Below, piece after piece: positions 21,667 through 24,547 of a DNA stretch of 41,466 nucleotides (positions are counted from its first letter, which is position 1; each line of letters starts with the position of its first letter). The position numbers and the translations under genes were made by a program. The stretch is from positions 1-41,466 of the IMG/VR virus record IMGVR_UViG_3300048868_000009, one strand, 5' to 3'. This DNA is from a virus (taxonomy: Duplodnaviria; Caudoviricetes). Below the pieces are notes generated by a model. That model was not told where the DNA came from and searched no databases. It worked only from the letters and a program-made list of their open reading frames with translations.

Positions 21667-21793
21667 TTGGCGGCCATTTACAACTGAGATTGGAGCGCAG
21701 CCTGCAAATTTTTCTTAGGGTATCGGAAAAAAATCCGGGCATCGGCTCGGCTTTCCAATCCGCACTTCAGCGAAGACCATACAGCCCGTGTGG

Positions 21794-21819
21794 CAAGGCA
21801 AGCTATGCAACTTGCCTTG
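21794..21819. terminator. Hairpin downstream of the effector gene
   Basis: CAAGGCAAG-N8-CTTGCCTTG; no clear U-tract. Confidence 0.4.
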
Positions 21820-21843
21820 AGTGAGCCATGCGTCATTCGGTCA

Positions 21844-22800
21844 TCACGCTTGTGCTGATGTGGAGGCTTCGTTGCTCGGTTGCGCCGATGAAGGAATTTT
21901 GCCGATTTCGCTGATGGGCCGATGGGCGAGAACCAACATTTGGGGAGTGACTTCACCGTTTTCTGTCCATTGCCCTTTGAAAAGCTTAACTAGATCAATC
22001 TCTGTAGTATCCGCCAACTCCTCCATCTTGTTAGGATCGTTGACAAGGCAGCCATTTCCGCGCCCGATGGCCTTGCCTTCGCCGCTGCTGATCATCACGT
22101 GAATAAGTTGGTGTTCCTCCTGGCGTTTGAGATTGAAAAAGCCGATGACATCGCCGGGCTTCACTGCTTTAAGCGCTTCAGCGCTGTCGACCTTGGAGTC
22201 GTCCAATGAGATCAAATCAAATGAACCACTCATGTTGCCCATCGACTTGCTCTCGGCCTCGGAAATAATCCCCGCTTGGACCGCACAGTATCTGGGCACA
22301 TGCCAACACAGCCCCTCGTTCATTTTCTTAAGGTCTTTTTTAGCCTGTTCGTCATCCGTTTGCTCGCTTGCTAAGGCTTTTTTTGCGATGTTCAAGGCTT
22401 GCTGGGATTTGGTGCGGTGCTCTCCTTCCGGCCATTGAGACCGAGTCGTTTGGTAACTCTTTAGGGGATTTTCCCCATCGCTGCTGAGCAGGTTTGAAAT
22501 TATGAATGAACGTGGTATGGGTTGAATCTCCAATGGCCTATTTTCTCCCTCCGAGCCGGAGCTGGAGCTTGGGCAGAGCGGCAAGCAACAATTTGCCATT
22601 GCTGCACTTGCATTTGATACGGTTTCTGATGCGACTTCGCGTACCTTTGAAGAGAATGCGGCCAGGTTGGAGATCGGCCCGGATGCCGCTTGATGGGTCG
22701 CTTGCGGGGTCTGGCGCAGGGGAGCACTCGAACTGCCTGTCTGTACGGATGGCGGGTAAGAAACATTCGGAGTTGAAATGCGTGACGATGACGGATCCAT
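21844..22800 (-). CDS. Putative type III effector with a Cys-His (TecA/papain-like deamidase or protease) domain
   Basis: Ser/Pro/Gln-rich N-terminus, hrpII box, GGAGG SD, visibly lower GC; motifs GLC165W, PGDVIGF, IH234VMIS.G.G. Confidence 0.75.
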   Translation of the reverse strand: MDPSSSRISTPNVSYPPSVQTGSSSAPLRQTPQATHQAASGPISNLAAFSSKVREVASETVSNASAAMANCCLPLCPSSSSGSEGENRPLEIQPIPRSFIISNLLSSDGENPLKSYQTTRSQWPEGEHRTKSQQALNIAKKALASEQTDDEQAKKDLKKMNEGLCWHVPRYCAVQAGIISEAESKSMGNMSGSFDLISLDDSKVDSAEALKAVKPGDVIGFFNLKRQEEHQLIHVMISSGEGKAIGRGNGCLVNDPNKMEELADTTEIDLVKLFKGQWTENGEVTPQMLVLAHRPISEIGKIPSSAQPSNEASTSAQA

Positions 22801-22832
22801 TGAAGCACCTCCAGAGAAAGGTTCACGGCTCC

Positions 22833-22893
22833 AATGTATCCGCCCGACTGGCGCAGCAAGCCGGCAACGCGAAAAACCAACCGCCTAGCCGAA
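22833..22893 (-). promoter_or_regulatory. hrpII/PIP-box promoter (HrpB/HrpX type)
   Basis: TTCGG-N15-TTCGC (22893-22869), then N30, then TACATT (22838-22833); matches TTCGB-N15-TTCGB-N30-32-YANNNT. Confidence 0.85.
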
Positions 22894-22968
22894 ACAAGTG
22901 TATGTGCCAACTAGTGTCAAGAGCACTTATGAGGCGAACACCACAGCCTGCTTTCCATGCCGTCGCCG

Positions 22969-24327
22969 TTAAGATGGCTCATATCTGAGCCATGACTCTT
23001 GCCACCACGGTACACTATCCAGAATGCGTGCACGCGCCGCCTCGGAAAATCGATTGGCTTCCATAAAGCGGATGACCTCACGCCTGGCAAATCGCCATTG
23101 GTGAAGCAGGTAATACTCAGGTATTCCGGTGAGTAAACTCGATAATGCCGCCTCTCCCCGGCCATTGAACAAACTCAACACTTGCAGCCACACTCGCTGT
23201 GACTGCGCCTTATCCAGGTCACGGGTGCTTGACAGCAGTCCGCGTGCTACCCTCTCACGTTGGGCCTCCGGCACACGCGCCAAATGGCGCTCAAATAAGG
23301 CCAACTCTTGTGTACGTTGCTCGGGCGGCAACATGTCGAGGCCTGCAGGCAGATGGCGCAAGGCGAGGCCCCATTGATCGTCCGGCAGTGATAAGGCCAG
23401 GTCGCGCATTTGCGCGTAACGGATAAGCCGCTCCGCTTCGGGCAAGAGCTTTGCGGCGACCGCTAGCGAGCCGACTGCATTGCCTTGATAAGACGGAGGA
23501 AGGCGCAAGGCATGGTCGCGCAAGACCGCATGCAGCGCGGACAGGCTCGGGTTTGTTCTGACTCTATCATCAAAACGCCACAGCAGACCGGACAAGCTCG
23601 GGATCAGCTCTGCTTGCTCGGCCACGCTCAACGACGGCAGCCGCGCCAGAAGTACCTGATAACGCTCGATGAGCGCCGGCGAGCCGGTTAGCAAAGAACA
23701 CAGCGCGATCGCCAATTCCCTCCAGACGTTGTCTTGCCCGGGGCCGCGCTGTTCGGCCAATGCGTGAACGAAGTCGAATGCTTCAGCACGCTGGAGCCCA
23801 AGCAATTCACGAAACATGCATAACATCGCCTTTTGTATTCGCACGCCGTCCTTCGGAATGCGCTGCGCGGCCGCAAACACGCGCTTGAAGGCTTCGGTTT
23901 GCTCGTCCCACGGCAACTCTTTCAACCGCTGGCGCAGCGCCTCAAGCGGTTCGACGTGCTGCGCCGGATCTTTCAGCGCGCTGTCCATCTCTTCCAGAAT
24001 GCGGTTGATCGACTCAAGGCTCTCGACCTGATTGGCTTGTTGCCAGTAACGGTAGACTAGGCGCCGACTTTGCATCGTATGATACGTACGACGATCGACT
24101 GCTGAAAAATTGCCCACGTCTTGCACGGGCACGTAGTCACCGATTCGCTCAATCAGTTCGGGCGGCAGGTCTTGGTATGTTGTTGGCCTGCTGGCCGACG
24201 TGTTAATCAACGCACCGCTGGCCGACGGCTGTCGTGGCGGTGCTGACGCGGCAGGTTGTGGGCACGACTCCAACGCGCAGATGTAGGCCCGGTAATCGTT
24301 CAAAGCGGCATTCAGATCAAAGTCCAT
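22969..24327 (-). CDS. F-box plus helical-repeat protein, putative secreted effector
   Basis: F-box-like 'YQDLPPELIERIGDYVPVQDVGNFSAVDRR' followed by Leu-rich helical 'L..LP' repeats; start may lie further upstream. Confidence 0.75.
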   Translation of the reverse strand: MDFDLNAALNDYRAYICALESCPQPAASAPPRQPSASGALINTSASRPTTYQDLPPELIERIGDYVPVQDVGNFSAVDRRTYHTMQSRRLVYRYWQQANQVESLESINRILEEMDSALKDPAQHVEPLEALRQRLKELPWDEQTEAFKRVFAAAQRIPKDGVRIQKAMLCMFRELLGLQRAEAFDFVHALAEQRGPGQDNVWRELAIALCSLLTGSPALIERYQVLLARLPSLSVAEQAELIPSLSGLLWRFDDRVRTNPSLSALHAVLRDHALRLPPSYQGNAVGSLAVAAKLLPEAERLIRYAQMRDLALSLPDDQWGLALRHLPAGLDMLPPEQRTQELALFERHLARVPEAQRERVARGLLSSTRDLDKAQSQRVWLQVLSLFNGRGEAALSSLLTGIPEYYLLHQWRFARREVIRFMEANRFSEAARARILDSVPWWQESWLRYEPS

Positions 24328-24547
24328 CGGCAAGCTGAGCAAAAGGTCAGACACACGCAACGTGAAGCGATGCTGCGCCATAGGGTAGCTGAAAGCCGGC
24401 GGATAAGCGTAGCGATATGCCGCGATCGCTAACTTTCCGGCGGTTACCACATTGTCGATCAGAACGTCAGAAGCAGCTGTGACGGGGCACAGTTATCAGT
24501 GTACGGGGCAGGGGCGACCGATTGAAACAGCTAGAAGGCATAGCATG

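Follow-up and report, generated by a model that had tools for sequence, protein, structure and literature searches.

We analysed a window of 41,466 nucleotides (nt), the entire virus record IMGVR_UViG_3300048868_000009, in which a P2-like prophage spans the genes at 1-33892. The slot between its tail completion gene gpS and its baseplate spike gene gpV contains a two-gene cassette, in which a gene of an F-box family is followed by a gene for a 318-residue candidate type III secretion system (T3SS) effector. In our preferred reading, to which we assign a probability of roughly 0.65 from sequence and predicted structure, this cassette is host-derived; its downstream gene would encode a HrpB-activated, type III-secreted Cys-His enzyme of predicted TecA-like fold, this enzyme would modify a fungal protein, and the F-box protein would recruit the fungal SCF (Skp1-cullin-F-box) ubiquitin ligase. 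By analogy, the cassette most likely works like an effector moron of the SopE type.

The slot, its promoter and the Hrp2 regulon

In transcription order, the slot comprises gpS as the left anchor (24548..25021, minus strand; PF05069, E 1.1e-38), the gene for a 452-residue F-box-family protein (22969..24327, minus), a promoter of the plant-inducible promoter (PIP) box or hrpII type (22833..22893, minus), the 318-residue effector candidate (21844..22800, minus), a duplicate of the gpS 3' end (21451..21666), an N6/N4 DNA methyltransferase (MTase; 20681..21424, plus; PF01555) and gpV as the right anchor (19840..20604, minus; PF04717). The MTase, whose start we set at the first ATG past gpV, is the usual tenant of the slot in related phages. 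A first-pass annotation of the bare sequence had placed two non-phage genes inside the tail region, and both open reading frames (ORFs) indeed lie on the minus strand between gpS and the MTase/gpV locus. It overlooked a 216-nt direct repeat that brackets the cassette: the 3' part of gpS (24569..24784) recurs with 88% identity at 21451-21666, where it ends 18 nt from the MTase stop and is likely a recombination scar. The lower GC content claimed for both genes is clear for the 318-residue gene (52.2%, against 62.1 +/- 2.2% and a minimum of 57.2% in equal-sized segments of the structural region); the F-box gene is only marginally low (58.4%, against a minimum of 58.1%).

The promoter TTCGG-N15-TTCGC-N30-TACATT lies 75 nt past the F-box stop and 32 nt ahead of the ATG of the 318-residue gene. 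It is an exact instance of the perfect TTCGB-N15-TTCGB-N30-TACATT element that the annotation had read there, and it fits the published consensus, TTCGB-N15-TTCGB-N30-32-YANNNT just ahead of a gene (PMC8565462). The full pattern occurs twice in the window against 0.13 expected per shuffled window, a count of two being reached in 1 of 100 shuffles; the other match, at 641-701, falls within the integrase and probably arose by chance. The proposed wiring to a Hrp regulon concerns the downstream gene, which alone of the two carries the PIP box. General promoter and terminator scans gave chance-level results.

The host of the window, to judge from sequence matches, is the genus Mycetohabitans, an endofungal bacterium, as the annotation had considered possible. 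Wherever a match of either cassette gene carries an organism name, that name is Mycetohabitans, Burkholderiaceae or Burkholderia sp. b13; among named contigs, one from Mycetohabitans sp. B46 is nearest to the window. A T3SS is essential for the Rhizopus-Mycetohabitans symbiosis, in which no effectors other than the Btl/MTAL proteins have been validated (PMC12696581, PMC10746252). In five Mycetohabitans genomes the PIP pattern occurs 24, 33, 21, 25 and 21 times, and its reversed control 4, 8, 6, 8 and 7 times, so that the pattern is the commoner in all five.

Strain B46, a genus relative of the host, possesses a full Hrp2 cluster, with SctC, SctJ, SctN, SctQ, SctR, SctT, SctU, SctV, HrpB1, HrpB4, HrpB7, HrpD5 and HpaP above the cut-offs and PIP boxes ahead of four operons (SctD/HrpD5, SctQ-R, SctU-V and HrpB1-SctJ). 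Between its hrcT and hrcC genes sits a 484-residue AraC protein. It is 98-99% identical in nine Mycetohabitans records; its identity in Ralstonia is 37%, and 134 records of that genus match it over the full length. From its place in the gene order we provisionally take this protein to be HrpB. The secretion system that the annotation suggested looking for, and a putative counterpart of the regulator, are present in the genus. A PIP box also precedes a transcription activator-like (TAL) effector gene in NZ_CP062173. The cassette promoters of B46 and the window share their half-sites and -10 element, and six positions of the spacers are different; in one related locus that has lost the downstream enzyme gene (L135), the first half-site has decayed. 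On this sequence evidence, HrpB very probably switches on the 318-residue gene together with the hrp operons.

The predicted TecA-like enzyme and its F-box-family partner

The 318-residue protein has a Ser/Pro-rich, charge-poor leader of the T3SS-effector type: its first 50 residues contain 12 Ser, 7 Pro and 4 Thr and a single charged residue, in line with the Ser/Pro-rich N-terminus that the annotation had described. A Sec-type hydrophobic N-terminus was not seen by eye. A cysteine cluster (C71, C72, C76) precedes the domain and could be a host lipidation site. Neither cassette gene could be placed in a useful family by searches of Pfam, NCBIfam and PHROGs, and a weak Fn3_Dep-1 match was rejected because it fell below the cut-off.

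A profile search with the 318-residue protein retrieved 63 relatives, most of them 150-250 residues long and some from Serratia and Hafnia. In an alignment of 60 rows, C165 is conserved in 58, H234 in all 60 and N249, a candidate for the third residue of the triad, in 59. The domain model built from this alignment is confident (predicted local distance difference test, pLDDT, 87.8); a model of the whole 318-residue chain from only four sequences was discarded (pLDDT 35.5). The predicted structure has a papain-like NlpC/P60 fold with a catalytic Cys and His, as in the TecA type, and TecA ranked first in four comparisons of the domain: a Foldseek search (7pzt, E 3e-3), a comparison with 48,161 chains (Z 11.0, root-mean-square deviation 2.6, 132 aligned residues; next hit Z 9.2), a separate structural comparison (Z 10.9), and a profile comparison in which the catalytic Cys and His were aligned (E 0.053).

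The leader sets the Mycetohabitans proteins apart. In five members from this genus, the catalytic Cys is found at positions 139-167, behind a leader with 18-24 Ser/Pro/Thr and 1 Asp/Glu/Lys per 50 residues, and in 46 shorter, free-standing relatives without a leader it has a median position of 33. The long leader would fit the grafting of a type III signal onto an enzyme, and it probably routes the protein through the Hrp2 needle. At the fungal membrane, where the Cys cluster would serve for lipidation, the enzyme may then deamidate a GTPase of the Rho family, a step that we regard as possible but doubtful. Separately, the TecA-like domain also occurs fused within long proteins of 456-1486 residues (P0086, P0088, P0102, P0106, P0125 and P0077), and several of these fusion proteins have signal-peptide-like starts. 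Two proteins, P0114 and P0117, start with MGNC, presumably a lipidation-like motif.

The F-box assignment of the upstream gene, made in the first-pass annotation, finds support at the level of the family. Among 36 aligned family members, 7 match the Pfam model F-box-like and 4 match F-box (E<=0.1), and residues ~49-90 of the window protein align without gaps to the Pfam-positive members. The atlas neighbour cluster of the gene carries the name F-box with a score of 0.97. The remainder of the protein looks helical; its C-terminal part matched no solved structure (best E 0.34) and has no internal repeat. The family is Mycetohabitans-wide: B46 yields 33 matches to it and genome G006 yields 36, which are counts of matches rather than copy numbers, and none of 30 loci of the family in G006 has an exact half-site pair within the 300 nt upstream. 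A genus-restricted F-box-like candidate effector that is induced on fungal contact has been reported from Mycetohabitans sp. B13 (PMC7482071, Table S4). The 'F-box protein [Burkholderia sp. b13]' (P0181), which is not demonstrably the same gene as the identifier listed there, falls in the family of the window protein. We consider the chances about even that the F-box protein is injected too and binds Skp1; it would then recruit the fungal SCF ubiquitin ligase.

Two further features of the family were seen in the window. A second, more divergent member (38166-39520, plus strand; Pfam F-box above the cut-off) is broken into two frames near 39,030-39,090 and follows an exact half-site pair, TTCGT-N15-TTCGC at 38107-38131, without a matching -10; we rejected it as phage cargo, because it lies in host-type DNA beyond the prophage end attR (see below). 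A conserved leader of ~130 nt, at 24328-24450 in the window, precedes the F-box gene of the cassette and most of 22 aligned members from G006, and could be a novel regulatory element of the family.

Distribution of the pair and its prophage setting

The F-box and enzyme genes form a pair that is found on the chromosome, chromids, conjugative plasmids, P2-like prophages and a second phage type. We examined 20 such pairs including that of the window, many of them near relatives and hence not independent, and found an exact PIP box between the genes in 16 (9 of 12 plus 7 of 8), with widely differing spacers. All 8 plasmid and chromid records examined, of 10 matching, have the F-box gene upstream, and 7 of them have the exact PIP box. 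Four genomes gave 17 enzyme-family loci: an F-box gene immediately precedes the enzyme gene in 11 and is absent there in one, a truncated locus (L132); two of the other five are at contig ends and three lay outside the comparison. The enzyme family has 5-6 matches per genome in three of the four genomes with any match. Behind nine F-box genes without a visible partner, a PIP box follows in two. Trees of 11 pairs resolve into the same four clades for both genes.

Enzymes of the slot clade are 51-52% identical to the nearest enzyme paralogue and 27-31% to the others. An unrelated prophage carries the nearest paralogous pair, past its lysis genes and next to polA (L118, L119). P2-like prophages, or what remains of them, have further pairs on their portal side (L123, 9112-11473; L129, 9596-11982), and the prophage of B46 carries two pairs. 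For the cassette genes, each of 13 comparisons gave a ratio of nonsynonymous to synonymous divergence (dN/dS) under 1, within 0.14-0.61; for phage core genes the range is 0.04-0.25. Because most copies lie outside P2-like phages and the F-box family exceeds 30 matches per genome, the cassette is, by its sequence relationships, a host-derived module of candidate effectors and not a phage-specific system.

As the first-pass annotation had proposed, we catalogued the cargo between gpS and gpV in relatives, which showed a position of variable cargo. All eight related slot loci (L002, L003, L004, L017, L022, L135, L136 and L138; the first three and L022 placed in the phage group of the window by identity only) contain an F-box paralogue, from three clades; a ninth locus identical to the window (L001) was excluded from the counts. 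The F-box gene of L136 is cut by an insertion sequence (IS), and in L135 a gpS remnant separates two F-box genes. In two soil metagenome runs, a 2,505-nt contig is identical across the enzyme gene and promoter, and in two other runs both are removed by a 2,248-nt deletion. Among 57 rows of distant P2-like phages neither cassette gene nor a PIP box was found; 25 of these slots are empty, 5 hold only an MTase and 27 hold other cargo, including defence-type genes, with 8 of 22 tested proteins matching PADLOC models (22 of 40 ORFs were tested). Neither cassette gene has a match among 50,697 GenBank phages.

Compared with B46, synonymous divergence (dS) is 0.06-0.10 for gpS and the cassette, and 0.23-0.30 for capsid, gpV, gpJ and MTase, as expected for a recent exchange of modules. 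We infer that a phage with the simple gpS-MTase arrangement received a block of gpS, F-box gene and enzyme gene by crossing-over; recombination at gpS would have brought in the cassette and left the 216-nt duplicate. Both cassette genes would travel together from one phage or replicon to another, in the manner of the SopE cassette.

The prophage itself carries the P2 genes in the P2 arrangement (integrase, primase-type replicase, Ogr and repressor; tail, baseplate, lysis and head genes; terminase and portal), with Pfam matches for capsid, GPO, GPL, GpR, S, V, W, J, I, GpU, GPD, Ogr and integrase, and its capsid is 66% identical to that of Burkholderia phage KS14. From 35769 onwards the sequence is of host type and agrees with genome G006 at 95-99%; since this DNA opens with the 3' part of a tRNA-Met gene, 35769..35814 (plus) is likely attR. 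The other end, attL, lies outside the window, and no att repeat was found between the two window ends. Related prophages lack the integrase of the window and lie beside tRNA-Phe (L175, L177) or, at a greater distance from it, tRNA-Arg (L176), which points to a mobile lineage.

Several other features of the prophage and its surroundings were recorded. Toxin-antitoxin cargo occupies two other phage positions: a BrnT toxin gene near the immunity region (8164-8445), and a BrnA antitoxin gene with a likely second BrnT beside the portal gene (33892-34426). The repressor region (6302-7245) has a tandem double copy in the related prophages L133 and L177. The host flank contains a 181-residue gene (36936-37478, minus; 51% GC) with a signal-peptide-like start and a Cys-rich body, for which no Pfam or PHROG match was found. 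A P2-like element of G006 (L136-L137) has tail and lysis genes, but nothing in the following 20 kb matches capsid, terminase or portal; it is possibly a headless remnant. In the unrelated prophage with the nearest paralogous pair, methyltransferase-like genes stand between duplicated endolysin genes (L119, 3722-6850).

Alternative explanations and known systems

Several observations weigh against our reading. The enzyme gene is present in only one of the eight related slot loci (L017), where it is split by a 1,243-nt IS3-like insertion, and its deletion in two metagenome runs indicates that it is dispensable. Taken over all 11 pairs, distances in one gene track those in the other only weakly (Spearman 0.28, p 0.039), the F-box gene of the window has no PIP box within 300 nt upstream, and Pfam gives no match to the 452-residue protein itself. 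The hrp cluster of the window's own genome is deduced from relatives, and the steps of expression, secretion and activity are read from sequence and predicted structure; in B. glumae, HrpB also controls substrates of the type II secretion system (PMC8565462). The match to TecA is distant (15-17% identity; template modelling scores 0.41/0.53) and lies only 1.2-1.8 Z units above peptidoglycan-cutting NlpC/P60 domains. Given this small margin and low identity, it is the fold and the catalytic pair of the modelled domain that are well supported, and not the substrate.

The cassette might be a passive passenger, if expanding, recombination-prone host genes land in prophages, just as they do in plasmids and IS-rich regions, without benefit to phage or lysogen; the proteins could still be effectors, and paralogues in the host would mean that no lysogenic conversion takes place. 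The large F-box family (33 and 36 matches in two genomes), the 5-6 enzyme-family matches in three of four genomes, and the slot copies that are IS-broken or deleted all fit such a view. We nevertheless consider it unlikely, as an F-box paralogue from one of three clades occupies every one of the eight related slots, the slot-clade enzyme differs enough in sequence from its paralogues (51-52% identity to the nearest, 27-31% to the others) not to count as redundant on that measure, and dN/dS is 0.14-0.59. The same fold could instead belong to an NlpC/P60-type amidase whose substrate is peptidoglycan or a peptide, directed at bacteria or at the cell's own wall during T3SS assembly or host entry; the PIP box would then do no more than co-regulate it. 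Most structural neighbours are peptidoglycan hydrolases (Z 7-9.7), atlas rows carry NLPC_P60/CHAP at 0.92, and hrp regulons include proteins that are not injected (PMC8565462). An amidase is quite improbable in our judgement, with TecA ahead in all four comparisons, no Sec-type N-terminus apparent by eye, a long leader specific to the Mycetohabitans members, and an F-box protein rather than a periplasmic immunity protein as the neighbour. P2-like hotspots are known for defence genes (PMC9122126), and the PADLOC matches in 8 of 22 slot proteins of distant phages would agree with an anti-phage defence pair that has a PIP box by chance. This is very improbable: both cassette genes have zero PADLOC (E<=1e-5) and zero PHROG matches, most copies lie outside P2-like phages, and the exact PIP box in 16 of 20 pairs compares with ~1-2 in 10,000 per 200 nt at the control rate.

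Under our preferred reading of a host-derived effector cassette, the F-box partner may be an independent effector or a metaeffector. A bolder version, which we think distinctly unlikely, is a co-evolving pair in which the enzyme deamidates a fungal small GTPase at entry, so as to open or calm the hypha, and the cognate F-box protein then removes the enzyme or its product via the fungal SCF ligase; Mycetohabitans phages would have converted a hotspot of anti-phage genes to the exchange of symbiosis modules. If so, phage infection would change which fungi the symbiont can inhabit. More generally, prophages and plasmids would offer a vertically inherited symbiont a route to refresh its effector set, and the locus yields two testable candidate effector families, the TecA-like enzymes with a shared promoter and the F-box family with its more than 30 matches per genome.

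The annotation had regarded the cassette as an undescribed system. In this respect we differ: phage-borne effectors under host T3SS control are already established, with SopE under InvF (PMC7380047), the Ralstonia effectors (PMC9535894) and hopAR1 (PMC10107160). What is new is the host, together with a TecA-like enzyme family that bears a T3SS-type leader and a constant F-box partner. Our literature searches turned up no account of the pair or its family, and the available parts of PMC3102044, PMC5877345 and PMC10746252 do not mention the pair; subscription papers and the supplements of PMC12696581, which hold prophage annotations, may bear on this novelty. That study reports 60 prophages in 28 Mycetohabitans genomes, with mostly structural annotation and effectors beyond btl unexplored (PMC12696581).

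The slot resembles the P2-like defence hotspots in its variable cargo between conserved P2 genes (PMC9122126), with the difference that the cargo of the window is predicted to be directed at eukaryotes. The F-box protein resembles the B13 candidate in being F-box-like and confined to the genus, and its family includes the b13 protein P0181; the B13 candidate was reported as a single gene, without family size, phage link or enzyme partner (PMC7482071). TecA, from Burkholderia cenocepacia and Alcaligenes faecalis (7pzt), is an asparagine deamidase that acts on a switch-I Asn of Rho GTPases by means of a Cys41 triad (PMC7641602, PMC8546862), and the predicted fold of the 318-residue protein has its catalytic Cys and His in register. 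TecA is a 17-kDa type VI secretion effector without a leader, whereas the 318-residue protein has a ~130-residue Ser/Pro/Thr-rich extension, a PIP box, and the motifs CWD, HxM and GNKNxC of its own family, at 15-17% identity to TecA.

As in our case, the Rip effector genes of Ralstonia prophages (PMC9535894) and hopAR1 (PMC10107160) are prophage effector genes in hrp-bearing bacteria, and Ralstonia shares the Hrp2 system. These are known plant-targeted families, and transfer by phage has been demonstrated for hopAR1, while for the cassette it is deduced. The SopE cassette of Salmonella consists of an effector with constant flanks that recombines among lambdoid and P2-like prophages under the host regulator InvF (PMC7380047). 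The cassette described here differs in its two genes, Hrp2/PIP-box regulon, fungal host, many non-phage copies and gpS-gpV position, and is known from sequence alone. With the SopE cassette it shares the occurrence of a T3SS effector module, here a candidate one, in unrelated prophages, including P2-like ones, and the putative control by a host AraC regulator of the T3SS locus.

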